Shown here: piece after piece, positions 644 to 50,578 of the stretch | Layout of the letters: every line of letters starts with the position of its first letter | Position numbering within the stretch: the stretch's first letter is position 1 | From: Vicinamibacterales bacterium | GTDB lineage: Bacteria; Acidobacteriota; Vicinamibacteria; Vicinamibacterales; 2-12-FULL-66-21 | NCBI GenBank assembly: GCA_038320555.1 | Contig: JBBQEJ010000002.1 | Span: forward strand, 22,618-86,617 | Reading direction: 5' to 3' | DNA: 64,000 nucleotides | Made by a program: the position numbers and the translations under genes | Notes under the pieces: model-generated | Seen by the model: the letters and a program-made list of their open reading frames with translations, nothing else | What the model was told of the DNA's origin: nothing | Database searches by the model: none

Positions 644-1603
644 CTAGGTAAGCTTCGTGATCCAGAGCGGCGAATCCTTACGGGGCAAATCGCAAGCCCG
701 GCAGATGTCAGGTCCGCCACTCTCGAGGTGTTCACGGCGCACGTCCCGATACGCCTCAGCGTTCCAGATTTCGGCGATGGAGTGGGTGTTCAGGTCGCCG
801 AGTATCGTCTTGCCATCGAAGTCGGCGCAGCAAAGCGACACCCGGCCGTCCCACAGCACCGTGAACGTCAGCCAGGGCCGGTAGCACGGATAGGTGACGT
901 CGGATTCCTTGTTGAGCGTGCCGGCCCAGTTGTGGAGATCGGTAACGTGAATCTTGTCGGCGATGGCGCGCCAGTGTTCGATGAACGCCTGTTCGTCGGC
1001 CGAGTTGTTCTGACGCACGAACGACAGGATCAACTTGGGCCTGCGCTTGCCGCTCTCGGCGCGCAGCCGTACGAGGCGCTCGATGTTCCCGATCACCTTG
1101 TCGTACTTCAGTCCGATGCGGGTCGATTCGAACACTTCCTTGCCCGAGGCGTCCACGCTGATGTTGATGGCGTCCAGGCCTGCGTCGATCATGCCGCGGG
1201 CAATCTGGTCGGTGATGAGCGATCCGTTGCTGATCATCCCGACTTCCTTGATGCCCTGCTGCTTCGCGTAGCGGACTTTCTCGACGAGCTTCCTGTCGAT
1301 GAAGGCCTCGCCGTAGTTGTGCATGCGAACGTGGGTGATCCCCAGTTCCACGCATTCGTCCACAATCTTGCGGAAGAGCTCGACGCTCATGATGCCCTGC
1401 CGCCGATGCATGTCGTCGCGGGGACAGAACACGCATTTCGCGTTGCAGATATTCGTGCTTTCGATCTGCACGATTTCCGGCATCCTGGGCGCGCGATCCC
1501 GTCCTGTCGCAAGCAGGAGGCGCCGCACAGGCTTCGCCTGCGCGCGAAGCAGGTGCTCCGCGGCACGGCGCGCACGCGTCTTGATGTTCATGGACTGGGT
1601 CAT
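644..1603 (-). CDS. radical SAM enzyme with Cys-rich SPASM/twitch-like C-terminal domain
   Basis: 319 aa. CX3CX2C motif in IESTNICNAKCVFCPRD. C-terminal Cys cluster CYRPW...SLCCADFDG...PDICRACD. ATG 1603 lies 8 nt after the upstream stop. An internal Met start at 1483 is not excluded. Confidence 0.85.
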   Translation of the reverse strand: MTQSMNIKTRARRAAEHLLRAQAKPVRRLLLATGRDRAPRMPEIVQIESTNICNAKCVFCPRDDMHRRQGIMSVELFRKIVDECVELGITHVRMHNYGEAFIDRKLVEKVRYAKQQGIKEVGMISNGSLITDQIARGMIDAGLDAINISVDASGKEVFESTRIGLKYDKVIGNIERLVRLRAESGKRRPKLILSFVRQNNSADEQAFIEHWRAIADKIHVTDLHNWAGTLNKESDVTYPCYRPWLTFTVLWDGRVSLCCADFDGKTILGDLNTHSIAEIWNAEAYRDVRREHLESGGPDICRACDLPRKDSPLWITKLT

Positions 1604-1611
1604 CAGAACTG

Positions 1612-2574
1612 CTAGAGCTGGCGAAAATACTCGATGACGCGCCTCAGCGTCTCATCGAGTTCGACAGTCGGCTCGTATCCGACGAGCGCCCTGATCCGCG
1701 CGATGTCAGGTACCCGGCGCGGCATATCCTCGAAGCCGGCCTCGTACGCCTTCTCGTACGGGATCGTGACGATTTCAGAGCTGCTGCCCGTCATTTTCTT
1801 GACCTTGGCGGCGAGCTCGCCGATCGTAATCTCTCTACCGTTGCCGATGTTGAAAACCTGGCCGATGGCGCGGGGTTCGTCGATCAAGGCTACCATAGCC
1901 CGCACGACGTCCCCGACATAGGTGAAGCTCCGCGACTGTGAGCCGTCGCCGAAAACGGTGATTGGCTGCCCCGCGAGCGCCTGCCGGACGAAGTTTGGGA
2001 TCACCATCCCGTATTGCCCTGTCTGTCTCGGGCCGACCGTGTTGAACAGGCGCACCACAATCACCGGCAGCTTGCGCTCTTTCCAGTACGCCAGGGCAAG
2101 GAACTCGTCGATCATCTTGCTGCACGCATAGGCCCACCGGTGCTTCGTGGTGGGCCCGAGCACGAGGTCCGCGTCCTCCCGGAAGGGTACATCGGTGCTC
2201 TTGCCGTACACTTCCGAGGTCGACGCGATCAGAACGAGTTTCTTCTTCTTGTTCGCCAGCTTGAGCACGACTTCCGTGCCGTGCACGTTGGTTTCGATCG
2301 TGTGCACGGGCTGCTCGACGATCAGCTTGACACCGACGGCCGCAGCAAGATGCACGACAATGTCGCACCGATCGATGAGCTCGGCCAGGACCGGCTCGTT
2401 CGTGACGGTGTCGATCGTGTAGTGAAAGCGCGGATTCTTCTTGAGATGGACGACGTTGTCGATCGAGCCGGTCGACAGATTGTCGAGAATGAAGACTTCG
2501 TCGCCGCGCTCGAGGAGCGTCTCGGCCAGGTGGCTTCCGACAAAGCCGGCCCCACCTGTGATCAGAACACGCAT
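1612..2574 (-). CDS. NAD-dependent sugar epimerase/dehydratase (extended SDR)
   Basis: 320 aa. Rossmann motif MRVLITGGAGFVGSHL and catalytic YACSK (YxxxK). Layout of UDP-sugar epimerases, decarboxylases and 4,6-dehydratases. Confidence 0.9.
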   Translation of the reverse strand: MRVLITGGAGFVGSHLAETLLERGDEVFILDNLSTGSIDNVVHLKKNPRFHYTIDTVTNEPVLAELIDRCDIVVHLAAAVGVKLIVEQPVHTIETNVHGTEVVLKLANKKKKLVLIASTSEVYGKSTDVPFREDADLVLGPTTKHRWAYACSKMIDEFLALAYWKERKLPVIVVRLFNTVGPRQTGQYGMVIPNFVRQALAGQPITVFGDGSQSRSFTYVGDVVRAMVALIDEPRAIGQVFNIGNGREITIGELAAKVKKMTGSSSEIVTIPYEKAYEAGFEDMPRRVPDIARIRALVGYEPTVELDETLRRVIEYFRQL

Positions 2575-2613
2575 CGGTCCTTCGTCCTTCCCTTCTTTCG
2601 TCGCGTCAGCGAA

Positions 2614-5648: not shown

Positions 5649-5660
5649 TCGGGGCTCGAG

Positions 5661-8183
5661 CTATCTTACCGCCACGCGATCGACCATCACGCCGACGTCG
5701 CGGTCGTCGGGCGTTCCAAGCACGCTCCGCGGCCTCCATGTCGGCGTCACGAGCTTCAGCTCGACCGGATCGCCTGTCCCGGCCGCGAGGGCCGCGAGAT
5801 CCGGCGGAATAGCGAACCGATAGGGCAGGAATCCGCCCCGGACCCGCGCCGTGCCGAGCCACTGGCCCTGCAGGTAGACGCGCACATCGGCTGGGACCAC
5901 GGACGGCGGCCGCCCGCCGTCGCTCATCCAGATCGTCACCTCGCGGCTGGACGGCTGGAGCACCGTGATGGATACGTACGACGTGGCACCCGTCCAGCGG
6001 AACGTGTGCCCCTCCGATGTTTCCTTCGCGTGGAACCTCACGACCTGGAGGTCGTCGCGCATGCCGACGTCGAGATCGAACCAGAGCCCGTCGCGCGCCT
6101 CTGGCGCCGTGAACTCGTAGACTCCGTACTCGAATTCCTTCTGACGGACGAATCGCGGAAACGCATCGAGCGGCGTGTCGTACTCCGGCACCTGGAAACG
6201 TTCGCTCGCAAGCGGTCGAACGCCGTACCGGTGCGACAGCAGGTCGGTGCCCCCGCCGCCGATGAACAACACGCGGTGATAGCGCGTATGCGCCCAATCA
6301 AGGAACGCCGCAAGCGTCGGCTTGTCGGGTCGGACCGGTTGCAGCACGAGGACGTTGCGCGCGTAGGTGTACGCAAGCGGAAGTGCGAGGACGTGCACGT
6401 CGCTGCCGGTATCGCGCGATTCGGCAAGGACCAGGTCGTCGTCGCCGATCGTTCCGGCGAGGCGCTCCAACCTGGGGATCAGTCCCGCGTACTCGACATG
6501 ATCGACGACCGGCCGGCTGGTGCGCGCGTAGTGGAGCGCAAGCAGCGCGATGAAGACCATGCGCACCAGGGTTCGCAGCACTCCAGCGGCGGTTCGCGGC
6601 GCACGAATCCCTCCGAGCGCGGCCGCCGACGCGAACAGAAGCATGCCGGGGAGAATCACCGGAAGGAACCGCCGCGTCATCCAGAAGTGATCGGGAGCGA
6701 TTCGAATCTTGAAGAAGAAGAAACAGGCGAACACGACGACCGTCATGATGAGTGCGGGATCGCGCCAGAACGCCCGCCGCGCCACGAGCCAGAAGCCGAT
6801 CAGTGCCGCCATGAGCCCCGGCAGTGTGAGGTACAGGTTCGTGAAGGTGCGCAGCGCGTTTGCGTCGTGCGCGGCGAGTTTTCCGCCCGGATGCCGGAGA
6901 GTCAGCGCGTAGAGCGCCAGCAGCCAGACGACAGCCACGATCGCGAGCGGCAGCCATTCAAGAACCCGAGGGGAAACCCGCAGCGCGCGAGCCGGCGCAA
7001 GCAGAATGGCCAAGCCGGCCAGCGCCACCACACCAAGCACCACATATTCCCAGGCAGGAAGATTGCTGAGGAACACGATCGGCAGGAACGCGTAGGCGCG
7101 CATGGGGCCGAGCAAATAGATTGACGCAATGGCCGCGACGATCGCGAACGTGGCGACAAACGCCACGCGCGGACGCCGGCCGTCCAGCACACCGAGTGCC
7201 AGGCCGCCCGCGGCACCCGCGATGCCCAGCACAGCGTCGAACCGCAGGAACAACAACAGGCCGAGGAGGACGCCGGCGACGGGTGCGAAGAATCGATCGC
7301 CGTCTACGTGCGCGCGCGCGTTCGCGAGCAGCGCCGCGAACAGCAGCGTTTGCATCACGACCTCGGCGTTCGGGTACCTTGCAAACCACACCTCGATCAC
7401 GTGGAGCGCAAGCAGCCCGGTTGCCGCGGCCGCCGTGATGCGTCCGACAAGACGCGTCCCGGCGAAATACACCGCGAGCAGCCCGAGAATCGCCCAGACG
7501 CTGACGGTCCGTCGAGCGCCGGTCAAGCCGTCGATGCCGTACCCGATGGCAATCGACGCCGGAAACAGGTGCGGAAACTGACCGACGACGGCGCCGGTGT
7601 CGAAGTTCCTGATGAAGAACCCCATGAATCGCAACGGCTCGTCCGCGCGGAAGAACAGGTTGCGTGTGAATGGCGGGACCGTCGCGACGATCGGATCCCG
7701 AAAGATCAGCGCGCCGCGCTGCGCGACCTGAATGCCCTCGTTCATGTACACGCCGGGATCCTTCCCGCCGATGATGTACTCCGCCGGGGGAAAGAAACGC
7801 GAGACCGCGAGCGCGACGAGCATCACGGGCACGATCGCCGTCCACGTCACCCGCCGCGCCGCGGCGCCCAGGCGAAGGCGGCCACGCGCTATCACGGCAC
7901 ACAGCGCCACGGCGCCGATGTCGGCAAAAATCAGCCGGCCGAACGTGTACCGCTGGAATACCGCGAGCCCTAGGACTACGGAGAGCGAGATGGCGAGGCT
8001 GAGCACGACGGCCCAGAAGGCGCGCTCCTCCGCGTCGAGTCCCGCGCGTCTGTCCCTATCGAGCCACGGGAGCCGGAAGATCGCGGCGCCGGGAAGATAG
8101 CCGATGATCGCGAGCGCGATGAGCTGAGTGGCTATCGCCACCGTCGCCCTTCGCCAAGAGGTAGCGGAGTGCCGGTGAGACAA
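5661..8183 (-). CDS. large multi-pass membrane protein, GT-C-type (ArnT/PMT-like) glycosyltransferase with about 230-aa soluble C-terminal domain
   Basis: 840 aa. Many hydrophobic helices span the first ~600 aa, followed by a soluble tail (FEYGVYEFTAPEARDGLWFDLDVGMRDD...). TTG start at 8183; GTG 8141 is an alternative. The family call rests on architecture only. Confidence 0.7.
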   Translation of the reverse strand: MSHRHSATSWRRATVAIATQLIALAIIGYLPGAAIFRLPWLDRDRRAGLDAEERAFWAVVLSLAISLSVVLGLAVFQRYTFGRLIFADIGAVALCAVIARGRLRLGAAARRVTWTAIVPVMLVALAVSRFFPPAEYIIGGKDPGVYMNEGIQVAQRGALIFRDPIVATVPPFTRNLFFRADEPLRFMGFFIRNFDTGAVVGQFPHLFPASIAIGYGIDGLTGARRTVSVWAILGLLAVYFAGTRLVGRITAAAATGLLALHVIEVWFARYPNAEVVMQTLLFAALLANARAHVDGDRFFAPVAGVLLGLLLFLRFDAVLGIAGAAGGLALGVLDGRRPRVAFVATFAIVAAIASIYLLGPMRAYAFLPIVFLSNLPAWEYVVLGVVALAGLAILLAPARALRVSPRVLEWLPLAIVAVVWLLALYALTLRHPGGKLAAHDANALRTFTNLYLTLPGLMAALIGFWLVARRAFWRDPALIMTVVVFACFFFFKIRIAPDHFWMTRRFLPVILPGMLLFASAAALGGIRAPRTAAGVLRTLVRMVFIALLALHYARTSRPVVDHVEYAGLIPRLERLAGTIGDDDLVLAESRDTGSDVHVLALPLAYTYARNVLVLQPVRPDKPTLAAFLDWAHTRYHRVLFIGGGGTDLLSHRYGVRPLASERFQVPEYDTPLDAFPRFVRQKEFEYGVYEFTAPEARDGLWFDLDVGMRDDLQVVRFHAKETSEGHTFRWTGATSYVSITVLQPSSREVTIWMSDGGRPPSVVPADVRVYLQGQWLGTARVRGGFLPYRFAIPPDLAALAAGTGDPVELKLVTPTWRPRSVLGTPDDRDVGVMVDRVAVR

Positions 8184-8194
8184 CGTAACGAATT

Positions 8195-8307
8195 CACCAC
8201 AGGGGCAGCAGAGTTAACGGAGATCATGAATGTTTTGTTCTCTGCTGGCTCCGCTTGCTCCGTGGTGAAACTCTCTCCGCTCTCTCCGTCCACTCCGCTC
8301 TCTCAGG
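8195..8307. repeat. imperfect hairpin (8195-8213 / 8240-8267) plus tandem TCTCTCCG-type units (8271-8307)
   Basis: caccacaggggcagcagag pairs imperfectly with ctctgctggctccgcttgctccgtggtg. This is followed by ctctctccgc tctctccgtc cactccgctc tctcagg. It lies in the only large (129 nt) gap inside the glycan operon, directly after the MBOAT stop. Confidence 0.6.
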
Positions 8308-8312
8308 CGCCA

Positions 8313-9734
8313 TCAGAACTGGAAGTAGATGAACTCGGCGCCCCCGAAGTTTCCGAACAGCATGGTCAGGTAAAACGTCGCGGCGTAAACGGAGTATCGC
8401 ACGCCGACGGGAAGGCGCGGAACGATGAGCAGGTTGTCGTACAGCGCCTCGCACACGTGTACGGCCAGCAACGGTGTCGTATACATCAGCAGCGGGACGA
8501 GCACTCCTTCGACGTTGATGGAGGAGGGAGCGAATGCCGTCAAGAGGCTGCGCGTCATTTCGGTCAGCTGCCTGGCCGATCGCGCGCGGAATATCAGCCA
8601 CCCGTAGCACGTCACATGAAACATGACCGCCCACGACACGATGCGCGCCACGGGAGCGTTGCGTGTGCCCCATGTATGAAAAGCCCGCACGCGATCGGCG
8701 GCCCTGAACGCGACGAGAAGTATGCCGTGATACAGACCCCACAGCACGAACGTCCAGGCGGCGCCGTGCCAGAGTCCGCCGAGCACCATGGTAATGAGGA
8801 GGTTGCGGTTGGTCCGGGCGGCCGAGCCGCGGTTGCCGCCGAGCGGAATATAGAGGTAGTCGCGCAGCCAGGTTGAAAGGCTGATGTGCCAATGGCGCCA
8901 GAACTCTTGCGGCGTCCGGACGAAATACGGGAATCGGAAATTTTCGATGAGCTCGATCCCCATCAACTTCGACGTTCCCCGCGCGATGTTCGAGTAGCCC
9001 GCAAAGTCACCGTAAATCTGGAACGCGAAGGCATACGCTCCGAGGAGCACGTTCACTCCGGTCGGCCTGGCCGCCGGGTCGAACACCATGTTGACAAGGC
9101 CGGCGAGATTGTCGGCGACGAAGACTTTTTGAAAGAACCCCCAGACAATCAACCAGAGCCCGTCGCGGATCTGCTCGCGAGACACCGTGCGCCGTGTGGC
9201 GATCTGAGGAAGCAGCCGGGACGCCCTGAGGATCGGGCCGGCGACGAGATGCGGGAAGTACGCCACGAAGACCGCGAAGTCGAGCAGATGGCGCGTGGGC
9301 GTGATCTCGCGGCGGTACACGTCGATCACGTAACTCATGGTCACGAATGTATAAAACGAGATGCCCACCGGCAGCAGCACACGGACCGTCACGAAGTCGA
9401 GTTGCCAGCCGAGCGCGCCAAAGACCGCGTGCAGGTTGTCTTCGAAGAAGTTGAAATACTTGAAGAATCCGAGGAGCGTGAGATTGAACCCGAGGCTCAG
9501 ACAGAGCAGCGCGCGACGCGACGCCGGGGCGCGCGAGGCGGCCAGCGCGAGCCCGCACGTGTAATCCACGAGCGTGGAGGCCACCAGCAGTCCGAGAAAA
9601 CGCCAGTCCCACGCTGCATAGAAGTAATAGCTCGCGACGAGCAGCAGCCAGTTCTGCCCCCGGTGCGGCAGCACGCGGTACAGCGAGTAGACGACGACGA
9701 AGAACCAGACGAAGTGCAGCGAGTTGAAGACCAT
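8313..9734 (-). CDS. MBOAT family O-acyltransferase (AlgI/DltB/PatA-like)
   Basis: 473 aa multi-pass membrane protein. MBOAT signature FWRHWHISLSTWLRDYLYIPLGGNRGS with the conserved His. Confidence 0.9.
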   Translation of the reverse strand: MVFNSLHFVWFFVVVYSLYRVLPHRGQNWLLLVASYYFYAAWDWRFLGLLVASTLVDYTCGLALAASRAPASRRALLCLSLGFNLTLLGFFKYFNFFEDNLHAVFGALGWQLDFVTVRVLLPVGISFYTFVTMSYVIDVYRREITPTRHLLDFAVFVAYFPHLVAGPILRASRLLPQIATRRTVSREQIRDGLWLIVWGFFQKVFVADNLAGLVNMVFDPAARPTGVNVLLGAYAFAFQIYGDFAGYSNIARGTSKLMGIELIENFRFPYFVRTPQEFWRHWHISLSTWLRDYLYIPLGGNRGSAARTNRNLLITMVLGGLWHGAAWTFVLWGLYHGILLVAFRAADRVRAFHTWGTRNAPVARIVSWAVMFHVTCYGWLIFRARSARQLTEMTRSLLTAFAPSSINVEGVLVPLLMYTTPLLAVHVCEALYDNLLIVPRLPVGVRYSVYAATFYLTMLFGNFGGAEFIYFQF

Positions 9735-9742
9735 CGTCGCGA

Positions 9743-10882: not shown

Positions 10883-10884
10883 GG

Positions 10885-11964
10885 TTATGCAGGCGCGAGG
10901 GCGGCGGCGACGCGGTCGATCGCGTTTGCCGGAAGCGAGGGATAGAGCGGCAGCGAGAGGATCTCGCCGCAGACACGGGTCGCGATCGGGCAATCAGCGG
11001 GCCGCTCGGACGCGAGGGCGGGCTGTGCGGGAATCGGGATCGGGTAGTGGATCAGAGTCTCGATCCCCGCCGCGCGAAGAGCCGCTTGAACCGCGTCGCG
11101 CGAGGCGCTGCGCACCGGGAACAGATGATAAACGTGCCCTTCGTCGAACAGAGGCGGGACCGCGATCGCGGTCGAGGGCCCGAGGCGCGCGCGATAATCG
11201 CGCGCGAGCGCCCGGCGGCGCGCAGTCCACTCCGGGAGAAAGGCGAGGCGGGCTCGCAGAATCGCGGCCTGAATATCGTCGAGCCTCGAATTCACGCCGA
11301 ATTCCCCATGGTGATAGCGATCGGTCTGCCCGCCGTTGCGAAGCCGTCGGGCGTGGTCGGCAAGTCGGGAGTCGTGGGTCGTGATCGCGCCGCCGTCACC
11401 GAGCGCACCGAGGTTCTTTGTCGGATAGAAGCTGAACGCCGCGGCCGCGCCGAAGCTGCCGACAGGCCTGCCCGTGCACGTCGCCAAATGCGCCTGACAG
11501 CAGTCCTCCACGACGGCGAGATTGTGGCGCGTGGCGACCGCGGCAATCGCGGGCATGTCGGCCGGTTGCCCGTACAGATGGACAGGCAGGATGGCCGCCG
11601 TCCGCGCCGTCACCGCGGCGTCGGCCGCTGCGGGATCGAGAGTCAGACGTTGTGGATCGATGTCGGCAAACACGGGCCGCGCCCCCACCATCATGATCGC
11701 GAGGGCCGAGTACGCCGCCGACAGTGGTGTGGTGATGACTTCGTCTCCGGGTCCAATCCCAAGCGCGCGCAGAGCAATCGCCAGCGCGTCGGTACCGGTC
11801 CCGACGCCGACCGCCTCGGCCGCACCGGACGCGGCGGCGAATTCTCGCTCGAACGCGTCCACCTCAGGGCCGAGAACGAACCACCCTCGCGTCATGACTC
11901 GCTCGACGGCCTCACGCACCGCGGCGGCGTCTTCGCCGGGTGTGAGCTGCAGGAAAGGGATCAC
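10885..11964 (-). CDS. DegT/DnrJ/EryC1/StrS-family PLP-dependent sugar aminotransferase (ArnB/WecE-like)
   Basis: IPFLQL...GWFVLGPEVDAFEREFA and FSFYPTKNLGALGDGGAITT (PLP lysine). Start moved to GTG 11964: GTGA overlap with the upstream stop and GGAG 6 nt upstream. Confidence 0.9.
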   Translation of the reverse strand: MIPFLQLTPGEDAAAVREAVERVMTRGWFVLGPEVDAFEREFAAASGAAEAVGVGTGTDALAIALRALGIGPGDEVITTPLSAAYSALAIMMVGARPVFADIDPQRLTLDPAAADAAVTARTAAILPVHLYGQPADMPAIAAVATRHNLAVVEDCCQAHLATCTGRPVGSFGAAAAFSFYPTKNLGALGDGGAITTHDSRLADHARRLRNGGQTDRYHHGEFGVNSRLDDIQAAILRARLAFLPEWTARRRALARDYRARLGPSTAIAVPPLFDEGHVYHLFPVRSASRDAVQAALRAAGIETLIHYPIPIPAQPALASERPADCPIATRVCGEILSLPLYPSLPANAIDRVAAALAPA

Positions 11965-12992
11965 GGGCGCTCCGGCTTGCACTCGTCGACGGTGTCGACG
12001 TACTCCGGCAGATGCTCCCTGAAGTACGCCAGGGTTCGGCGAAGGCCCTCGCGCAGATCGACCTGTGGCGTCCAGCCGACACGTTTCTGGAATTTCGTCG
12101 AGTCAGAATAGAAGCTGCCGATGTCGATCCGCTTCTTTTCGGGGGGCCAGTCCACGTATCGCACGCTGCCGGACCCTGCGGTGTCGATGAGCAGGGCCAC
12201 GAGATCGCGATGGCTGATGGGTTCGGCTCCACCGACATTGAAGACGTCCCCATCGCATGCATCCGACGCACCCGCGCGCAGGAACGCGTCAGCGGCATCA
12301 TCGACATAAACGAAATCACGCATCTGCGAGCCGTCGCCGAAGATCTGAATCTCCCGGTTCTCGATCGCGAGGCGGATGAACCAGCCGATGAAACCCTGCC
12401 GATTGTGTCGAACGAGCTGCCGCGGGCCGTAGACGTTCGTGAGACGCAGGGAACAGGCGCGGACGCCGAAGACGTTGTTGTAGAGGAGGTGGTAGTACTC
12501 CCCGGCGGCCTTGTTGACGCCGTTGATGTCCGCGGGGCGCACCAGGTGGCGCTCGTCAACCGGCAGGTACTCGGGCCGCCCGTACACCTGACGCGTGCCC
12601 GCGTAGACCACCCGGACGCCCGGATTGTTCGTGCGGCAGGCTTCCAGAATCGAGAGCTGCGCCCGGCAGTTTATTTCCAGATCCGTATACGGGTCGCGCA
12701 TGCTGTCGATGTGGCTCACCTGGCCGGCGAGGTTGAAGATCACGTCCTGTCCTCGCGCCAGCACGCCAATCGTACTCTGCATCCGCACGTCGGCGATGTT
12801 GACGCGGACGCGATCCGCGAATTCCGAGATGTTGAAGAGATTCCCGCCGTAATCCGGCAGCAGCGAGTCGATGAGGAGCACGTCGGCGCCGAGATCGACG
12901 AGCTGACGGGCGAGATTGCTGCCGATGAATCCCAGGCCGCCGGTGATCATCACGCGGCGTCCCTTGTAGAACTCGCGGTACGACTGCGTCAC
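11961..12992 (-). CDS. NAD-dependent epimerase/dehydratase-family SDR with atypical active-site motif
   Basis: MITGGLGFIGSNL Rossmann motif and TNVYGPRQ block. Start is GTG 12992 in a GTGA overlap with the upstream stop (ATG 12956 is an alternative). ADINGVNKAAGE sits where PYGxSK (YxxxK) is expected. Confidence 0.85.
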   Translation of the reverse strand: MTQSYREFYKGRRVMITGGLGFIGSNLARQLVDLGADVLLIDSLLPDYGGNLFNISEFADRVRVNIADVRMQSTIGVLARGQDVIFNLAGQVSHIDSMRDPYTDLEINCRAQLSILEACRTNNPGVRVVYAGTRQVYGRPEYLPVDERHLVRPADINGVNKAAGEYYHLLYNNVFGVRACSLRLTNVYGPRQLVRHNRQGFIGWFIRLAIENREIQIFGDGSQMRDFVYVDDAADAFLRAGASDACDGDVFNVGGAEPISHRDLVALLIDTAGSGSVRYVDWPPEKKRIDIGSFYSDSTKFQKRVGWTPQVDLREGLRRTLAYFREHLPEYVDTVDECKPERP

Positions 12993-13777
12993 GCCCGATC
13001 CCTCGGCTCCGGTGGCACCGGTTCCGCAGACAGGCCGCGCAGCTCGGGCCGGAGGTGGTCCCGGCGGACGACGAGCGCGGCCCACAGCTTCGCCACGTCG
13101 ATTGCCGTCTTGAAGAGCCGGCGGAAATTGAAGAATTGCGATTTCCCGTGCGCGCGGTGATAGTGGTGGATCGGTACTTCGGCAATGCGGAATCCCGCGT
13201 CCTGGATCTTCTTCATCATCTCGAGACAGATCACGCCGCTGGTCTTTTCCAGCGAGACCTGCTCGAAGATGGATCGGCGCAGCAGACGGAAGTCGCAATC
13301 GACATCGCGCACGTTCAAGCCGAAGAGCCGCTTCACCGTGTGGTGATAGACGCGCCCGATCACGATTCGGTGCAAGGGATCCGAACGGCTGATTTTGTAT
13401 CCGTTGACGAGATCGACATTGTCATCAAGTGCGTCCCAGAGCCTCGTCATCTCCGACGGATCGTACTGGGCGTCGCCGTCGGTGTAGAACACCAACTCGC
13501 GAGTGGCCGCCTTGAAGCCGCTCTGCAGCGCGCCGCCGTAGCCGCGGTTACGTCCGTGGCGCACGACCCTGACTTCGGGATACGTGCGTGCGAGCTCATC
13601 GGCGATCTGCGCCGTCGCGTCCGCGCTTCCGTCATCGACGATGATCACCTCGAAGTCCGGCGTAAGGGCCCTCGCAGTCTGCAGCGCGGTGATCACGAGG
13701 CTCGCGATTGTCCCGCTGTCGTTGTAGGCGGGAAAAAAGACAGTGAGTCCTGGCTTCCTGATGGCAGGCTGAGGCAT
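12989..13777 (-). CDS. glycosyltransferase family 2 (Dpm1/ArnC/GtrB type)
   Basis: 262 aa. LTVFFPAYNDSGTI, VIIVDDGSADAT, RNRGYGGALQSG. Confidence 0.9.
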   Translation of the reverse strand: MPQPAIRKPGLTVFFPAYNDSGTIASLVITALQTARALTPDFEVIIVDDGSADATAQIADELARTYPEVRVVRHGRNRGYGGALQSGFKAATRELVFYTDGDAQYDPSEMTRLWDALDDNVDLVNGYKISRSDPLHRIVIGRVYHHTVKRLFGLNVRDVDCDFRLLRRSIFEQVSLEKTSGVICLEMMKKIQDAGFRIAEVPIHHYHRAHGKSQFFNFRRLFKTAIDVAKLWAALVVRRDHLRPELRGLSAEPVPPEPRDRA

Positions 13778-13794
13778 CTGTGGAGCCGTGAATC

Positions 13795-15024
13795 TTAACT
13801 GGGCGGTGATTTCAAGGCAAGCGCACGGGTGTACGCGGCCTCGAGCCGCTCCGCGGCCCGTTCCCAGCCGAACCGTGCCTGCACGAGCGCACGCCCGGCG
13901 CTGCCGATTTGGCGTCCCACGTCAGGGTTTGAAACAAGCCGAACCATTGCCGCCGCAATGGCCGCGGCATCCCTCTCGGCGACAACGATCGCGGTGACGT
14001 TGTCGTCGACGACCGCCCCGATGCCACCCGCCGCCGTGGTGATGAGCGGTACCCCCGACGCGAGCGCCTCGAGAACGACGTTCGGAAGGCCGTCGACGTT
14101 GCCGCTGTCGTCGCGGATCGACGGTACGCAGATCATGTCCGCAGCGGCGAGATACTCGCCGACCCGATCCTGCGTCTGGTTGCCGAGGAAGCGAACCCGC
14201 TCAGCGACGCCTGCCGTTCGCGCGCGCGCCTGGAGTTCGCTGCCCAGGCTGCCGTCGCCCGCGACAGCAAGCACGATCCCCGGGACGCTGCCGACCGCGT
14301 CGACGAGATACTCGAATCCTTTCTTGCTCACGAGGCGTCCTGCCGCGACACAGAGGGGCACGCGATCGCCCACGCCGAGTTCACGCCGCCGCGCCGCGCG
14401 CATCTCGGGGTCGGGGCGAAAACGAGCCACGTCGACGCCGTAGGGCACGGTCTCGATCCGGGCGGGATCGGCGCCAAGCGCGATCGCCCGCTTCGCGAGA
14501 TCGTCGCTGCAGGCGGTCACAAATCCCGCGCGGCGGAACGTATGCCGCGCGGCCAGCCGGGCCGCCGCGAAGGTTTCGGCGACGTAGACGTCGGAGCCGT
14601 GAAGACTGACGACGAGCGGCACACGGGGAGCCGCGAGGGCGGCCGTGACGCCGCCGGGAATCACCCAGTGCCCGTGCATGATCGTGGCTCGATGACGCTG
14701 CGCGATCTTGCGCGCCGTGCGCCAACCCGCCGCGAGCGCGAACGGAGCCGCGACGTATGCGGCGCCGCGAAGGCTGACGTCGGCGCGCATGGCCGCCGCG
14801 TACCCGAACACGTTCAACGATCGCAACGGCGCATAGCGATAGAAATGGAATCGCACGCCGTGCTCCTCCTTCGCCCGCTCGACGAGCGGATGCCACGGGG
14901 CGACGACGTGAACCTCGTGCCCTCGGGCGGCGACCGATTGGGCAATCGGCTCCATGAATGTGCCGACGCTATCGCCGCGGAATCTCGGGTACGACGTCGT
15001 CACCATCACGACGACGTGCGGCAT
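13795..15024 (-). CDS. glycosyltransferase family 4 (GT-B, Glycos_transf_1)
   Basis: Track ORF trimmed to ATG 15024, 2 nt after the upstream TGA. MPHVVVMVTTSYPRFRGDSVG... and C-terminal GLPNVVLEALASGVPLITT. Confidence 0.85.
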   Translation of the reverse strand: MPHVVVMVTTSYPRFRGDSVGTFMEPIAQSVAARGHEVHVVAPWHPLVERAKEEHGVRFHFYRYAPLRSLNVFGYAAAMRADVSLRGAAYVAAPFALAAGWRTARKIAQRHRATIMHGHWVIPGGVTAALAAPRVPLVVSLHGSDVYVAETFAAARLAARHTFRRAGFVTACSDDLAKRAIALGADPARIETVPYGVDVARFRPDPEMRAARRRELGVGDRVPLCVAAGRLVSKKGFEYLVDAVGSVPGIVLAVAGDGSLGSELQARARTAGVAERVRFLGNQTQDRVGEYLAAADMICVPSIRDDSGNVDGLPNVVLEALASGVPLITTAAGGIGAVVDDNVTAIVVAERDAAAIAAAMVRLVSNPDVGRQIGSAGRALVQARFGWERAAERLEAAYTRALALKSPPS

Positions 15025-15026
15025 GT

Positions 15027-15737
15027 TCACCGGGGCGCGCGGCGCAGCTTGAGGCGCCACGGCATGATGACGGACTCGACGATGACGTTCGACGACAGCT
15101 TCGACTGCCCCTGCCGCCGCTCGACAAAAATAATCGGCACCTCGCCCATGCGGCACCCGTTCCGCGCCGCGTCGAACAGCATCTCGACGAGGAACGCATA
15201 ACCGTCCGACACCATGGTATCGAGCGGCAGGCGCGCAAGCGCCTCTCTCCGCCAGCAGCGAAAGCCGCTCGTGCAGTCGGTAGGGGACAGCTGGGTCACC
15301 GCGCGGATGTAGCGATTGGCGAACGTGCTGAGGAAAATCCGATGCAGCGGCCAGTTGACGACGCTGACCCCGTTCAAATAGCGGGAACCGATGACGACAT
15401 CCGCCGTGGCGGCTCCGGCCGTCAGCGCCGGCAGGTACTCGGGATTGTGCGACAGATCCGCATCCATCTGGCAGATCAGCTCGGCGTCGGTCGAGGCAAT
15501 CGCATGGCGCAGCCCATCGATGTAGGACCGCCCAAGGCCGCGCTTGCCGGTACGGTGCATGACTTCGACCCGGCCCGGGTATTCCGCGACCAGCGCATCA
15601 GCCACCTCACCTGTTCCATCGGGCGAGCCGTCGTCGACGACGAGCATTCGGAATCCCTCGTACGCAAGTACCCCGCGGGCGAGAAGCGGAAGGTTTTCCC
15701 GCTCGTTATATGTCGGAACGACTACCAGGACGTTCAT
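15027..15737 (-). CDS. GT2 polyprenol-phosphate hexose synthase-like (Ppm1/Dpm1 type)
   Basis: 236 aa. MNVLVVVPTYNERENL, MLVVDDGSPDGT, GKRGLGRSYIDG. No TM tail. Its ATG shares one base with the upstream stop (TGATG). Confidence 0.9.
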   Translation of the reverse strand: MNVLVVVPTYNERENLPLLARGVLAYEGFRMLVVDDGSPDGTGEVADALVAEYPGRVEVMHRTGKRGLGRSYIDGLRHAIASTDAELICQMDADLSHNPEYLPALTAGAATADVVIGSRYLNGVSVVNWPLHRIFLSTFANRYIRAVTQLSPTDCTSGFRCWRREALARLPLDTMVSDGYAFLVEMLFDAARNGCRMGEVPIIFVERRQGQSKLSSNVIVESVIMPWRLKLRRAPR

Positions 15738-17008: not shown

Positions 17009-17016
17009 CACAGCCG

Positions 17017-17877
17017 TTATCGACGGCCTTCGAACCGCAGCGCCGAGATCTGTTCGGAGACGAGCCCGACGAGGAACACCATGACTCCGAAGAGGATCAG
17101 CAGCACGGCGCCGTTGGGAATACGCGAGTGCGCCACGACGTTCCACAAGCCATACGTCAGTCCTGTCACGATCGTGATGCCGGCGAGCGGTACGAACACG
17201 CGCAGTGGACTGAAGATGGTCACGATCTTCAGAATGATCATGAAGAACTTCGCGCCGTCGCGGGCGAGCCGGATCTTCGACTGGCCGATGCGGGTGCGGG
17301 CTTCTACCGGCTCGAACGTCACGTTGTAGCCGGCTTTGATGAACGCCAGGGTGGTCGTGGTTGGCGTCGAGAAGCCGTTTGGCAGGAGGTGAATGAACTC
17401 GCGCAGATACTCGCGCCGCGCGCCGCGGAACCCCGACGTCAGGTCGGGGATTTCGCGGCCCGTCAGGTAACCCGCAAGCCAGTTGAGGGCGCCGTTTCCG
17501 ACGCGACGCGCGCGGGTCGCTTGCGTCGAGGTCGAGCGGGCGCCGACGACCAGGTCGTACTCGCCCAGGCGCGACGCGATGCGCCGGGCATCTTCCGGCC
17601 GGTGCTGTCCGTCGCCGTCGATGATGAGGACGAACTCGCCGCCGGCCCTGCGGATCCCGCTCTTGACCGCAGCCCCGTTGCCCTTGTTGTAGGGATGCCT
17701 CACCACGACGGCGCCGGTCGACGCCGCCAGCGTGGCCGTCGCGTCGTCCGACCCGTCGTCCACGACGATGATCTCGTGCCACGTCGCGGCGGCCGCCAGG
17801 GCGGCCACGACCTGGCCGATGACATCCGCTTCGTTGTAGGCAGGAATGACGACGGATACCGCTGAAGGCTCGGCCAC
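17017..17877 (-). CDS. GT2 with C-terminal TM helices (GtrB/ArnC-type polyprenyl-phosphate glycosyltransferase)
   Basis: VSVVIPAYNEADVIGQVV, IIVVDDGSDDAT, NKGNGAAVKSG, then two hydrophobic helices. GTG 17877 is preferred. ATG 17928 would overlap the upstream gene by 47 nt. Confidence 0.85.
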   Translation of the reverse strand: MAEPSAVSVVIPAYNEADVIGQVVAALAAAATWHEIIVVDDGSDDATATLAASTGAVVVRHPYNKGNGAAVKSGIRRAGGEFVLIIDGDGQHRPEDARRIASRLGEYDLVVGARSTSTQATRARRVGNGALNWLAGYLTGREIPDLTSGFRGARREYLREFIHLLPNGFSTPTTTTLAFIKAGYNVTFEPVEARTRIGQSKIRLARDGAKFFMIILKIVTIFSPLRVFVPLAGITIVTGLTYGLWNVVAHSRIPNGAVLLILFGVMVFLVGLVSEQISALRFEGRR

Positions 17878-17881
17878 TAGA

Positions 17882-18907
17882 TTAATGCTTCCATTGATCC
17901 GTGCGGGACAGGGCGGGTGGTGGCGCATCGGCCTCGCGGTCCCGCAGTTCGAGCGATCGCATCCGGTAGAGCAGATCCTCCAGCAGCTTGCGGTTCCCCG
18001 AGATGACGTCGGCCAGGAGTCCGATCACGAGAATCTGGAAGCCGACGAGCATGACTACCGCGGCGGCAATGAGGGATTGGATGTGCTTGAACCCCTCATG
18101 ATTGAAGTAGTAGTAAACGTTCCGCATCGAGAGCGCGAAACCGGCGCCGAACACCGCCAGGCCCAGGTAGGTGAAGATCTTGAGCGGCTCGTACATCGCG
18201 TAGATCCGCACGATCGTCGCCGCGGAGCGTTTGACGTACGAGAAGGCGCTGTCAAAGAGGCGCGATTCACGCGTGCGGGGATTGGTCGCGACCGGCACGT
18301 GCGCGATCGCCATCCTCTTCTTGCCGGCCTGGATGATGGACTCGAGCGTGTAGGAAAACTCCGAAACGATCGTCATCCGTAGCGCGGCTTCGCGCGTGTA
18401 GGCGCGGAACCCGCTCGTCGTGTCCGGCACGCTCGTGTTCGAGACCTGCCGCACCACCCAGCTTCCCAGTTGCTGCAGCTGGCGCTTCCGCCACGACATG
18501 TGGCGCAGCTCCGCGATATTGCGATCGCCGATCACGATATCGGCATCGGCGCTGAGCAGCGGTGCGAGCAATCGGGGAATCTCGTTTGCGGCGTACTGGT
18601 TGTCGGCGTCGGTATTGACGATGAAATCCGCGCCGGCCTTCAGCGACGCGTCGATGCCCGCCATGAAGGCGGCCGCGAGCCCCTTGTTGCGTCGCAGCCG
18701 CACGACATGCTCGACGCCGCAGCGTCGCGCCACGTCCGCCGTGCCGTCGCGCGAACCGTCGTCGACGACGAGCACTTCCACGAGGTCGATCCCCGCGATG
18801 GCGCGAGGCAGATCGGCCAAAGTGGCCGGCAGGGTCGCGGCCTCGTTGAGGCACGGAATCTGAATGATGAGCTTTTTCACGAAATGCCCAAGCCGTCGAG
18901 ACGGCAC
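17882..18907 (-). CDS. GT2 with C-terminal TM helices (GtrB/ArnC type)
   Basis: KLIIQIPCLNEAATL, VLVVDDGSRDGT, RNKGLAAAFMAGI, plus C-terminal helices. Start is GTG 18907 or GTG 18880. Confidence 0.85.
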   Translation of the reverse strand: MPSRRLGHFVKKLIIQIPCLNEAATLPATLADLPRAIAGIDLVEVLVVDDGSRDGTADVARRCGVEHVVRLRRNKGLAAAFMAGIDASLKAGADFIVNTDADNQYAANEIPRLLAPLLSADADIVIGDRNIAELRHMSWRKRQLQQLGSWVVRQVSNTSVPDTTSGFRAYTREAALRMTIVSEFSYTLESIIQAGKKRMAIAHVPVATNPRTRESRLFDSAFSYVKRSAATIVRIYAMYEPLKIFTYLGLAVFGAGFALSMRNVYYYFNHEGFKHIQSLIAAAVVMLVGFQILVIGLLADVISGNRKLLEDLLYRMRSLELRDREADAPPPALSRTDQWKH

Positions 18908-18921
18908 GACGTGCTGTGAGT

Positions 18922-18957
18922 CATGGCAATTATGGCGATTCTGGCAATTCTGGCAAC
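18922..18957. repeat. four tandem 9-mers (catggcaat tatggcgat tctggcaat tctggcaac) straddling the stop codon of the GT4 gene
   Basis: Read directly from the sequence. On the coding strand the units spell ...LPELPESP-stop and continue into the 22-nt spacer. Confidence 0.7.
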
Positions 18958-19994
18958 GTCGTCAGCTTTTCGATCACGCCGTCCCACGTGATGCCGGTCG
19001 CCACCGCGTACCCCGCGTCGCCCATGGCCGCCGCTCGTGCGCGATCGGCGGCGAGCCGGTTGATCGCATCCGCCAGCTCGCCGGGGTTTGGCGCGCACAC
19101 GAACCCGTTCACGCCGTCCACGACGAACTCGGTCGGGCCACCCGAGTCGCGGCAGGTCACGACGGGCTTCCGCGCGAGGAATCCCTCGAGCGTGACGTAC
19201 CCGAAGTCTTCGTCGAAGGGCGGATAGATCACCGCCAGCGCGTGAGCATAGAGTCCGATCAAATCGTCGTCACCGACGGTTCCGAGAAAGGTGACGCGGT
19301 CGACGACGCCCGCTTCTTCCGCCGTTCGCTCGGCATTCTGCCGATGCGTCCCGTCGCCGGCAATGAGGAGGCGAGCCGGGCGATCGACGCTCGCCATTGC
19401 CTTGATGATCAAATCGACGCGCTTGACCGATTCGATTCGGCCGACCGACAGAACATAATCGCCAGACGGCCCGGGGACGAGTCGCGGCGCCAGGTTCGGC
19501 GGGTGATACAGCGCCTCGGCCCGGAGCCCGTTGAACTTCGCCAGCCGCGATGCTGTGTTGCGCGCGTTCGTGAAGAGGGCACGGCACTCGCCGAGCATTT
19601 CCGTGTCGAGCCGCATCAGCGTGTCGCGCAGACCCACGTCCAGCTCCGTGTGCGAGAAATCGCTGTACTCGGTGCCGCACAGCTCGTAAGCAGCACGGTA
19701 TTGGTGAATGAGCCACGCGACCTTGTTCGGGTGCCGCGCGAAGTAGGAAGGAAACTTGGTGCCGATCACGAGATCCACCGGCCGACCGTTGCTCTCGCTC
19801 AAATCCAGGAGCCGCCACGCCGCCGCATGGGGCAGGATTTCTTCCTTGGGATACCACTTGAACGGCACGCTGACGAGTTCCGCCGAGTAGCCCCGCTGCC
19901 GCAGCTCCCGTACCAGTTGCCGCACGTGAACTTCAGCGCCGCCGTGCACGAACGGCACTTGGGCCTCGCAGACGAGCACGGTCTGCACTGTCAT
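18930..19994 (-). CDS. glycosyltransferase family 4 (GT-B), first gene of the glycan operon
   Basis: 354 aa. FDEDFGYVTLEGFLARKPVV (EX7E-like) and overall GT-B layout. Confidence 0.85.
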   Translation of the reverse strand: MTVQTVLVCEAQVPFVHGGAEVHVRQLVRELRQRGYSAELVSVPFKWYPKEEILPHAAAWRLLDLSESNGRPVDLVIGTKFPSYFARHPNKVAWLIHQYRAAYELCGTEYSDFSHTELDVGLRDTLMRLDTEMLGECRALFTNARNTASRLAKFNGLRAEALYHPPNLAPRLVPGPSGDYVLSVGRIESVKRVDLIIKAMASVDRPARLLIAGDGTHRQNAERTAEEAGVVDRVTFLGTVGDDDLIGLYAHALAVIYPPFDEDFGYVTLEGFLARKPVVTCRDSGGPTEFVVDGVNGFVCAPNPGELADAINRLAADRARAAAMGDAGYAVATGITWDGVIEKLTTLPELPESP

Positions 19995-20004
19995 CGAATG
20001 GGTG

Positions 20005-20013
20005 AATCTACCA
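20005..20013 (-). promoter_or_regulatory. candidate extended -10 element TGgTAGATT, 10 nt upstream of the GT4 ATG
   Basis: Minus strand reads cgTGgTAGATTcacccattcgATG. It shares the core GTGGTAGA with sites at 38408 (+) and 62935 (-). Confidence 0.3.
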
Positions 20014-20023
20014 CGATGTAAAG

Positions 20024-20063
20024 TTGGTGAATTGGTGAATTGGTGAATTCACGAATTCACCAA
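20024..20063. repeat. three tandem octamers TTGGTGAA followed directly by their complement (32-nt near-perfect palindrome containing GTGAATTCAC)
   Basis: ttggtgaa ttggtgaa ttggtgaa ttcacgaa ttcaccaa. A further ggtgaatc copy lies at 20001. The element sits between the ychF stop and the glycan operon start. Confidence 0.75.
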
Positions 20064-20075
20064 TCGGCACCAGCG

Positions 20076-38417: not shown

Positions 38418-38539
38418 AGATATATCCATGGCACGCGGGAGCGGCGGCGTCTGAGCGCCAGTCTGCGCACCGCAGCAGGGCCGTCGGCGTCACGACGCGG
38501 CGTCCGTCGCCGCCCACCGTAAGCTCGTTCCGGCATTCA

Positions 38540-50544: not shown

Positions 50545-50578
50545 TATCGTTTGTGTTGCGTGACGGATTCATTCCTCT

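Follow-up and report, generated by a model that had tools for sequence, protein, structure and literature searches.

What does an operon make that encodes four GT2 and two GT-C glycosyltransferases alongside cytoplasmic transferases and sugar-modifying enzymes, with no visible machinery for export or polymerisation? The question is raised by positions 644–19994 of a 64,000-nt stretch of a Vicinamibacterales genome (GenBank assembly GCA_038320555.1, contig JBBQEJ010000002.1, positions 22,618 to 86,617; the whole stretch is referred to below as the window), where sixteen complete genes, all on the minus strand, are read from 19994 down to 644. Members of this order rank among the most abundant bacteria in soil, and to our knowledge nothing is known of their envelope glycans. 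An earlier note on this DNA had proposed that the operon serves only to decorate an existing acceptor in the periplasm with lipid-linked single sugars. The analysis presented here leads to another reading, to which we assign a probability of roughly 55%, namely that the locus makes a lineage-specific, non-polymerised envelope glycan, the assembly of which would be split between two compartments.

Gene content of the operon and its continuation past the window edge

Families were assigned by Pfam and NCBIfam profile searches, together with matches to solved structures and AlphaFold2 (AF2) models searched with Foldseek, and each of the sixteen reading frames was backed by codon-position GC content. 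Four GT2s, two GT-Cs, two GT4s, a GT9, a DegT aminotransferase, two short-chain dehydrogenases/reductases (SDRs), an MBOAT and SGNH pair, a radical-SAM/SPASM enzyme and a 613-aa protein make up the set (Table 1). The sixteen packed, co-directional genes described in the earlier note were thus borne out, and Pfam and NCBIfam agreed with nearly every family call made in it. Spacing, measured with the starts used by orthologues, ranges from 4-nt overlaps to +39 nt, as previously described, with one exception between the MBOAT and large GT-C genes. This gap is 129 nt long if the TTG at 8183 is taken as the start of the GT-C, or 171 nt with the GTG at 8141, which yields the 826-aa product found in databases; it holds a long imperfect hairpin rather than the 'repeat gap' of the earlier description.

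The window edge cuts a seventeenth gene at 2–541, the product of which is 76% identical to a complete 223-aa orthologue in the related stretch L048 (3825–4496); the orthologue in L047 (17650–18363) has 237 aa. An open reading frame (ORF) at 90–554 was rejected as a gene, being in the wrong frame; the conserved frame is that of 2–541. Orthologues of this secreted protein gave no Pfam match. By eye, a domain of ~100 aa resembles the STN-type (secretin/TonB N-terminal) fold, and it is accompanied by a long, disordered tail rich in Pro, Gly and Gln. The conserved secreted protein could be an acceptor or a scaffold.

Positions 1–700 of the window are collinear with L047 at 81% nucleotide identity, the large GT-Cs of the two being 89% identical, and L047 carries the same sixteen genes in the same order. 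These are followed in L047 by genes for the 237-aa secreted protein, a 236-aa methyltransferase, a 519-aa Wzx/MOP-type protein (Polysacc_synt/Polysacc_synt_3), a radical-SAM/SPASM enzyme and a B12-binding radical-SAM enzyme, which places the flippase three genes beyond the window edge. In two further relatives, L048 and L128, the locus extends to an optional PMT_2 GT-C (588 aa), a divergent GT2 encoded on the other strand, a multi-pass protein (534 aa) whose D-x-x-x-Y loop is GT-C-like, another PMT_2 GT-C (577 aa), one more methyltransferase, a GNAT protein, a deacetylase-like protein with a weak PF01522 match and a third GT4. At the far end of the locus, relatives carry yqeY and murJ, then an MFS transporter and a rhomboid protease. 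Counts were made in 64 species genomes offering 8 kb or more of sequence downstream of the radical-SAM orthologue: the secreted protein was present in 58, the methyltransferase in 57, the B12 radical-SAM enzyme in 54 and the Wzx-type flippase in 53.

Since a flippase is found downstream in relatives, its absence here most likely stems from the position of the window edge, and the gene is most likely encoded just past it. What had been taken for a lack of export machinery would therefore be an edge effect. The earlier note had allowed that sequence beyond position 1 might supply the missing export genes; in relatives it does so for the flippase, but not for a polymerase, chain-length regulator, outer-membrane exporter, ABC transporter or initiating phosphoglycosyltransferase. 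The full locus would span about 34 kb and hold roughly 30 genes with a GT2 to GT-C ratio near 5:5, judging from the collinear relatives, and the window contains its promoter-proximal sixteen genes and part of the seventeenth, that is, the first two-thirds. With one more GT2 and two or three more GT-Cs downstream, the 4:2 excess of GT2s that the earlier note had pointed out would be gone.

No Wzx, Wzy, Wzz, Wza, ABC transporter, PF00953/WbaP-type transferase or small GtrA/ArnEF-like gene was found within 644–19994, where the intergenic gaps are too short to hide a small gene. The reported lack of Wzy, Wzz, Wza, an ABC exporter and an initiating phosphoglycosyltransferase holds for the window and also for ~14 kb of collinear downstream sequence (L047, L048 and L128). 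As for an initiating transferase, the only PF00953 match in the window is MraY of the division and cell wall (dcw) cluster, and the glycan locus of relatives contains none. Small multi-pass ORFs that might represent ArnE or ArnF were likewise absent, gaps being at most 39 nt save for the 171-nt hairpin.

GT-C transferases

Both large membrane proteins had been called GT-Cs in the earlier note, a call that was confirmed by the structure model for the 826-aa protein and by the PMT_2 matches of its orthologues for the 423-aa protein. The latter scored 25.9 bits against a PMT_2 (PF13231) cut-off of 26.1, and 13 of 14 orthologues matched this family (best E 5.7e-8). A weak Wzy_C match was obtained for two of the 14 (E 4e-4), the PMT_2 matches being far more numerous and higher-scoring.

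The AF2 model of the 826-aa protein, produced from a 34-sequence alignment (pLDDT 83, pTM 0.84), comprises ~14 transmembrane (TM) helices, then a C-terminal alpha/beta unit and a beta-sandwich resembling a carbohydrate-binding module (CBM), which form a predicted periplasmic domain. When the model was compared with the PDB using Foldseek, the top matches were all GT-Cs (STT3, AglB, PglB, EmbA/B/C, DPY19, ArnT, ALG12, AftA and Pmt4; E 7e-8 to 1e-3, TM-scores 0.35–0.47); BcsB and CBM-type sandwiches, which matched the C-terminal domain in part, ranked after these. Distant full-length homologues match PMT_2 with 30–36 bits, which exceeds the gathering score, and NCBI lists one of them as a GT39 protein. 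A GGxDPGxY loop after the fourth helix is invariant in the family down to 41% identity.

The 826-aa protein showed no PF02516 (STT3) match and no WWD, WWxYG or WWDYG motif, and its membership of the oligosaccharyltransferase family was rejected for want of the STT3 domain or WWDYG; the likeness to STT3, PglB and AglB is generic to GT-C-A folds. Profile searches of both GT-C families against solved structures produced no match, so the fold call rests on the AF2 model, Foldseek and Pfam matches in orthologues, and a profile-profile comparison of the 423-aa and 826-aa families was not significant (probability 5.9%). The 826-aa protein is best modelled as a divergent GT-C of the PMT_2 superfamily, not as a ligase or Wzy.

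GT2 and cytoplasmic GT-B enzymes

All four GT2s had been assigned to the type that charges polyprenyl phosphate with sugars, and the comparisons agree: the closest solved structures are dolichol-phosphate mannose synthase (DPMS), ArnC and GtrB, and the leading NCBIfam profiles are AglJ, PpgS and ArnC. The 341-aa GT2 matches AglJ over its full length (127.6 bits), followed by PpgS and ArnC. For the 303-aa enzyme, solved structures rank as ArnC (full length), then DPMS and GtrB sll0501, with membrane helices included in the match, and the closest structure to the 236-aa enzyme is the Pyrococcus furiosus DPMS (111.5 bits, residues 1–229). Because all GT2 scores lie below equivalog cut-offs, the synthase type is supported by these profiles but the donor sugars are not.

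Against NCBIfam heptosyltransferase I, II and III profiles the GT9 protein scored 99–110 bits, under cut-offs of 135–185, and its solved-structure matches were a GT9 protein, WaaF and WaaC. The 613-aa protein gave weak profile matches to Capsule_synth, DUF6716, TIGR04396 and BFO_1060, and Foldseek aligned its model with UDP-GlcNAc 2-epimerases and GT-B glycosyltransferases (target TM-score 0.55–0.69). It is thus predicted to be a soluble GT-B enzyme, a fold that rules out polymerase, ligase or flippase as its function. The earlier note had wondered whether this protein or the large GT-C (840 aa in that description) might be polymerase- or ligase-like; the models indicate neither for either protein, nor a flippase for the latter.

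Sugar tailoring and acylation genes

The DegT gene and its adjacent SDR had been likened to an ArnB/ArnA module devoid of formyltransferase and deformylase. The adjacent SDR turned out to be epimerase- or 4,6-dehydratase-like, with solved-structure scores of 144 bits for UDP-glucose 4-epimerase and 112 bits for TDP-glucose 4,6-dehydratase, and NCBIfam scores of 136 bits for dTDP-glucose dehydratase and just 33 bits for ArnA. It is the distal SDR at 1612–2574 that resembles UXS and ArnA (NCBIfam UDP-4-keto-pentose/UDP-xylose synthase, 180 bits vs a cut-off of 294). The rest of that description stands: neither a formyltransferase nor a PF01522 match, as expected of ArnA and ArnD, respectively, was found among the sixteen products, and relatives have just the weak PF01522 match (21.6 bits) at the far end of the locus. 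NCBIfam scores of the DegT protein, which falls between these three types, were 221 bits for PseC, 206 for ArnB and 181 for a WecE-type profile, each below cut-off. The Arn equivalog level was not reached by any product (ArnA 143 vs 777, ArnB 206 vs 631 and ArnC 88 vs 529 bits), and the resemblance to Arn is at superfamily level only. The GNAT and PF01522 genes lie together in L128 (12559–14561), and by analogy the pair could replace the Arn formyltransferase and deformylase by an acetylation/deacetylation cycle.

The closest solved structure to the 319-aa radical-SAM/SPASM enzyme is BtrN, a radical-SAM aminocyclitol dehydrogenase (44 bits), and the enzyme probably modifies a sugar. Downstream, the second radical-SAM/SPASM enzyme and the B12-binding one (BchE/HpnJ-like, sub-threshold) are conserved in the locus (L048 8734–11582, L128 4785–7648). 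Three radical-SAM enzymes in all suggest unusual C-methylated or otherwise radical-modified sugars or lipids.

The SGNH protein carries an N-terminal TM helix as well as GDSL and GNDA blocks. Its gene and that of the MBOAT protein were detected in 18 of 34 relatives with full flanks, always jointly, and the pair is therefore regarded as an accessory cassette.

Conservation and genomic setting

Across the same 34 relatives, the GT9 and the second GT4 were each present in 31, the 303-aa GT2 in 30 and the 423-aa GT-C in 28, and the 613-aa protein, the UXS-like SDR and the radical-SAM enzyme in 27 each. Gene order is kept in dozens of species-level genomes. In relatives with 46–52% identity the module is reduced to GT4-GT2-GT2-GT4-GT-C-GT9 and persists at another chromosomal site; in at least one of them, the complete chromosome L029, it adjoins nqr genes instead of dcw, with two more GT4s, a GT-C-like protein and methyltransferases nearby. 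The GT-C of L029 is 46% identical, and the GT-C-like protein beside the six-gene module (16115–17566, minus strand) is a 483-aa multi-pass protein with an SDEIEY motif after TM helix 1 and no Pfam match, so the reduced module still keeps two GT-Cs. No waaA, lpxK, msbA or waaL was found beside the reduced module in L029.

The ychF gene lies directly upstream of the operon in the window, followed by the divergent dcw cluster (mraZ, mraW, ftsI, murE, mraY, ftsW, murC, ftsQ, ftsA and ftsZ), and rpoD, dnaG, mutS2, citrate synthase and lepA are further neighbours. The operon has the same GC content as its surroundings. In many close relatives the locus sits between the dcw cluster and murJ, and in more distant ones elsewhere. 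The locus belongs to the core genome and is not an island.

The homologues of the 826-aa protein belong to the order Vicinamibacterales within the Acidobacteriota. In an alignment-based scan, 203 stretches from species-representative genomes contained relatives, giving a minimum of 203 species genomes. Of the best 80 stretches, nearly all are titled Acidobacteriota or Vicinamibacter*; the few other labels among the best 80 are probably due to mis-binning. Seven contigs titled Bifidobacteriaceae, Gemmatimonadaceae, Woeseiaceae or Solibacteraceae also contain homologues of locus proteins, in collinear order in L037 and as protein matches only in L008, L261, L262, L183, L186 and L267. These are probably mis-binned or mislabelled contigs of metagenome-assembled genomes.

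Proposed assembly of the glycan and alternative readings

In the reading we prefer, the UXS/ArnA-like decarboxylase, the epimerase/dehydratase-like SDR with DegT and the radical-SAM/SPASM enzyme would supply pentose and amino or deoxy sugars in the cytoplasm. The two GT4s, the GT9 and the 613-aa enzyme would assemble a short oligosaccharide at the inner membrane face, with a lipid as its acceptor, and the four DPMS/ArnC/GtrB-like GT2s would charge polyprenyl phosphate with single sugars. The Wzx/MOP-family flippase, known from relatives, would carry lipid-linked material to the periplasmic face, where the PMT_2-type GT-Cs, two in the window and two or three downstream, would add single sugars to the glycan. 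The 826-aa GT-C probably holds its glycan acceptor by the C-terminal beta-sandwich, and the MBOAT and SGNH proteins, where present, would O-acylate the product outside the cytoplasm. In favour of such a division of labour are the tight packing of the genes, the synthase-type matches of the GT2s and the C-terminal TM helices of two of them (341 and 303 aa), the GT-C fold with its extra beta-sandwich, the soluble GT-B fold of the 613-aa protein, the downstream genes of relatives with their flippase, the persistence of the six-gene module, the accessory nature of the MBOAT/SGNH pair and the housekeeping surroundings. More tentatively, and with some doubt on our part, our leading candidate for the acceptor is a lipopolysaccharide (LPS)-core-like glycan built directly on lipid A-Kdo or on another membrane lipid. 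The conserved GT9 and the GT4s fit best with such a glycan, and it would account for the lack of an initiating phosphoglycosyltransferase, Wzy, Wzz, ligase or exporter in the locus.

Several points weigh against split assembly of an envelope glycan. The literature yielded no biochemical or genetic work on any gene of the locus, and nothing relevant on Vicinamibacter glycosyltransferases; the flippase and the other downstream genes are known from relatives only; and every enzyme scores below curated equivalog thresholds, which makes the donor sugars guesses. GT9 membership is the sole specific pointer to LPS, and no waaA, lpxK, msbA or waaL was found adjacent to the locus in any relative examined. 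The MOP flippase, for its part, could move either single-sugar donors or the oligosaccharide.

That the locus does nothing but transfer lipid-linked single sugars to a finished acceptor (lipid A/LPS core, peptidoglycan or protein), with neither a glycan of its own nor a dedicated flippase, is the view of the earlier note in its pure form, and pairing of a GT2 with a GT-C is the defining trait of Arn-, Gtr-, Rgt- and Lgm-type systems (PMC11127046). The ArnC-, ArnB- and ArnA-like similarities and the failure to find an initiating transferase or polymerase are consistent with such a role. We nevertheless consider it highly improbable: the four cytoplasmic GT-Bs in the window and a GT4 downstream, conserved along with the GT-Cs, are too many for decoration only, so the locus more likely builds a glycan too, relatives carry a MOP flippase within the conserved locus, and equivalents of the formyltransferase, ArnD and ArnE/F are absent from the window. 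The flippase has a natural place in an ordinary Wzx/Wzy O-antigen or exopolysaccharide (EPS) locus, for which the initiating transferase, polymerase, chain-length regulator, ligase and exporter would have to be encoded elsewhere, much as enterobacterial wecA and waaL can lie outside the O-antigen cluster. The weak Wzy_C matches of the 423-aa family would fit here too, but are far outnumbered and outscored by PMT_2. Wzy, Wzz and Wza are missing from ~34 kb across many genomes, and five GT2/GT-C pairs are foreign to classical loci. Moreover, O-antigen and EPS loci are normally hypervariable; conservation of the present locus in the core genome makes this reading less likely, and on balance very unlikely.

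General protein glycosylation would cast the GT-Cs as PMT/PgtC2-type O-glycosyltransferases, or the 826-aa protein as an oligosaccharyltransferase, with the 2–541 protein as a candidate substrate. AglJ-like GT2s, a methyltransferase and a Wzx-like flippase do recall the haloarchaeal Agl pathway, both GT-Cs are PMT_2-like, and STT3, AglB and PglB are the top structural matches of the 826-aa protein. There is also a precedent for the conserved secreted protein and its disordered Pro-rich tail in streptococci, where GtrB and a GT-C glycosylate disordered protein regions (PMC12041528). This reading is unlikely, however, given that the 826-aa protein lacks the STT3 Pfam match and WWDYG, that its TM-scores to oligosaccharyltransferases are not above those to ArnT, ALG12 and Pmt4, that its CBM-like beta-sandwich favours a glycan acceptor, and that the Pro-rich tail contains few Ser and Thr residues. 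A further variant, which we hold to be rather unlikely, is an assembly resembling that of the endoplasmic reticulum or of mycobacterial lipoarabinomannan (LAM), undescribed in diderms, in which a DPM1/AglJ-type GT2, or a GT4 working on a membrane lipid, would start the glycan without a phosphoglycosyltransferase, a Wzx/RFT1-like protein would flip it and four to five PMT_2-type GT-Cs would extend it in the periplasm from five different polyprenyl-phosphate sugars; the 826-aa protein would then represent a new GT-C family, with the task of completing the glycan or of passing it en bloc to the final acceptor.

Spacers, repeats and other features of the window

The octamer GGTGAATT/AATTCACC has seven copies in the window, where 0.82 would be expected: the ychF-GT4 spacer holds four of them at 20026–20061, three in direct and one in inverted orientation, and single copies lie at 8191–8198, 10530–10537 and 62539–62546. 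Similar clusters were seen in intergenic spacers of close relatives (L002 18365–18448, L005 1686), and not at the same junction in other species, where the ychF-GT4 spacer is 10–140 nt long and of unrelated sequence. An operator function of AATTCACC/GGTGAATT was rejected and no regulatory role is claimed for AATTCACC because other species do not keep the motif at this junction; it has the look of a short intergenic repeat specific to the lineage. At 18924–18956, 3.7 copies of a 9-nt tandem repeat, GAATTGCCA, extend across the 3' terminus of the first GT4 gene, and they overlap the region's only strong sigma-70-like match (TTGCCA-16-CATAAT).

The hairpin of the 171-nt spacer sits at the downstream junction of the MBOAT/SGNH cassette and includes TRF repeats at 8240–8304. 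A homologous, longer hairpin occupies the same site in L047 (9734–10000, z = -8.3), and none was found in L001. A mobile repeat was rejected, as neither the window nor 5 Mb of related loci contains another copy, and the hairpin could be a young palindromic insertion, or else a transcript-processing or attenuation element at the cassette junction. Internal terminators were also rejected: 17 terminator-like sites were counted vs 11.3 +/- 3.2 expected, which is no excess.

Two plus-strand genes elsewhere in the window encode a further GT2 and a further radical-SAM protein. A 503-aa processive-type GT2 (Glyco_trans_2_3/Glyco_transf_21; 50564–52075) lies amid housekeeping genes and appears unrelated to the operon, and a 620-aa radical-SAM protein with Radical_SAM_N2 (38420–40282) directly follows ftsZ at the end of the dcw cluster.

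Table 1 Features of the glycan locus, numbered from the first position of the window
Position	Strand	Feature	Evidence
2..541	-	Seventeenth gene, cut by window edge: secreted protein with signal peptide, small domain and Pro-rich tail	Translation, orthologues
644..1603	-	Radical SAM + SPASM, 319 aa	Radical_SAM 73 bits, SPASM 61 bits
1612..2574	-	SDR, 320 aa, UDP-glucuronate decarboxylase (UXS/ArnA C-domain)-like	Human UXS1 200.8 bits, ArnA ~120 bits
2614..4455	-	Predicted soluble GT-B-fold enzyme, 613 aa	AF2 pLDDT 87; no convincing TM helix
4452..5648	-	GT9 (heptosyltransferase family), 398 aa	Pfam Glyco_transf_9 (PF01075) 122.8 bits
5661..8183	-	Predicted GT-C, 826 aa (GTG 8141) or 840 aa (TTG 8183)	No Pfam match; AF2 + Foldseek
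8142..8312	-	171-nt spacer, long imperfect hairpin with 9-nt purine-rich repeats	RNA fold -79.7 kcal/mol, z = -5.35
8313..9734	-	MBOAT acyltransferase, 473 aa, partner of SGNH	Pfam MBOAT 90.7 bits; NCBIfam DltB 178.6 bits, sub-threshold
9743..10849	-	Membrane-anchored SGNH/AlgX-like O-acetyltransferase or esterase, 368 aa	ALGX 28.7 bits (cut-off 26.5), Lipase_GDSL_2
10885..11982	-	DegT/PLP sugar aminotransferase, 359–365 aa	Pfam 373 bits
11961..12992	-	SDR, ~330–343 aa, nucleotide-sugar 4-epimerase/4,6-dehydratase-like	Solved structures, NCBIfam
12989..13777	-	Soluble GT2, 262 aa, ArnC-like	Solved-structure ArnC 82 bits; NCBIfam ArnC 88 bits vs 529 cut-off
13795..15024	-	GT4, 409 aa, cytoplasmic GT-B	Glycos_transf_1 106.6 bits, Glyco_transf_4; NCBIfam TuaC 141.8 bits, sub-threshold
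15027..15737	-	Soluble GT2, 236 aa, Dpm1/DPMS-type polyprenyl-phosphate hexose synthase	No TM helix
15737..17008	-	GT-C, 423 aa, PMT_2/ArnT-like	~9 TM helices; DEREY motif after TM helix 1, residue 37
17017..17928	-	GT2, 286–303 aa, GtrB/ArnC-like	NCBIfam AglJ 139 bits; 2–3 C-terminal TM helices, 228–291
17882..18907	-	GT2, 341 aa, polyprenyl-phosphate sugar synthase type	Pfam Glycos_transf_2; TM helix residues 279–297
18930..19994	-	GT4, 354 aa, first gene of the cluster	Pfam Glycos_transf_1 115.6 bits; no TM helix; NCBIfam GT4 matches sub-threshold only
19995..20075	-	ychF-GT4 spacer with AATTCACC direct and inverted repeats, possible promoter region	Repeat motif

Comparison with known systems

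Every component of the locus comes from a known family and its mechanism would follow known principles; it is unusual in make-up and not mechanistically mysterious. What sets it apart is the combination of ~5 GT-Cs, ~5 DPMS/ArnC-like GT2s, five GT-B transferases and three radical-SAM enzymes in a conserved core-genome locus of a diderm phylum, together with the divergent 826-aa GT-C family, its invariant loop and its C-terminal beta-sandwich. We know of no characterised Gram-negative system that concentrates as many pairs of GT-Cs and polyprenyl-phosphate-sugar GT2s. If split assembly is true, the strategy of mycobacterial lipoglycans and of eukaryotic and archaeal lipid-linked oligosaccharides (LLOs) extends to a diderm phylum, with a new, structurally distinct GT-C family. 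If the locus is instead an LPS-core locus with many decorations, the result is a useful annotation and no surprise.

The Arn (PmrF, L-Ara4N on lipid A), Rgt (Rhizobium GalA) and Lgm (Bordetella GlcN) systems share with the locus a UXS/ArnA-like decarboxylase, an ArnB-like aminotransferase, an ArnC-like GT2 and GT-Cs of the ArnT superfamily, and the PF01522-like deacetylase and GNAT of relatives could stand for ArnD and the formyltransferase. Unlike Arn, the locus scores far below the equivalog cut-offs, has no formyltransferase domain and no ArnE/F, carries beside DegT an SDR that is not ArnA-like, and includes many extra transferases. Its polytopic MBOAT beside a membrane-anchored, predicted periplasmic SGNH protein matches the layout of AlgI/AlgJ-X and PatA/PatB-type pairs.

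Mycobacterial lipomannan/LAM and arabinogalactan synthesis (PimA/B GT4s; Ppm1 GT2; PimE, MptA-C, Emb and Aft GT-Cs) offers a similar succession of cytoplasmic GT4 steps on a lipid anchor and periplasmic GT-Cs fed by polyprenyl-phosphate sugars. Some of these GT-Cs bear CBM-like domains, and the structural matches of the 826-aa protein include Emb and AftA. Here, in contrast, the host is a diderm acidobacterium, sequence kinship is no closer than superfamily, and the genes form one operon that also encodes GT9, radical-SAM and MBOAT/SGNH proteins. The LLO pathways of archaea (AglJ/AglD/AglR/AglS/AglB) and eukaryotes (ALG GT4s, RFT1, DPM1/ALG5, ALG3/9/12 and STT3) likewise combine GT4s, DPM1/AglJ-like GT2s, a MOP-type flippase and lumenal or periplasmic GT-Cs, and the large GT-C is closest in structure to STT3 and AglB; however, the locus lacks the STT3 signature (PF02516, WWDYG) and an ALG7/WecA-type initiator, and it is not known to act on a protein acceptor.

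Three-component systems, in which a polyprenyl-phosphate sugar synthase acts with a flippase (including MATE-family members) and a GT-C, some GT-Cs carrying a CBM, are exemplified by GtrA/GtrB/GtrC, CsbB/GtcA/YfhO and the Citrobacter PPPRS/MATE flippase/GT136 set (PMC11127046). As in the model proposed for the locus, the synthase charges polyprenyl phosphate, the flippase transfers the product and the GT-C adds the sugar to a glycan outside the cytoplasm; a C-terminal CBM in some GT-Cs is a further point in common, and a MOP-superfamily protein, as encoded in relatives of the locus, can serve as the flippase of such systems. The locus differs in having four to five GT2s, two to five GT-Cs and five GT-B transferases in one conserved operon, in lacking a small GtrA/SMR-type flippase, and in belonging to the core genome rather than being a serotype-converting add-on. 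In the best-supported reading, the three-component logic would be repeated four to five times over and joined to a phase of assembly in the cytoplasm.

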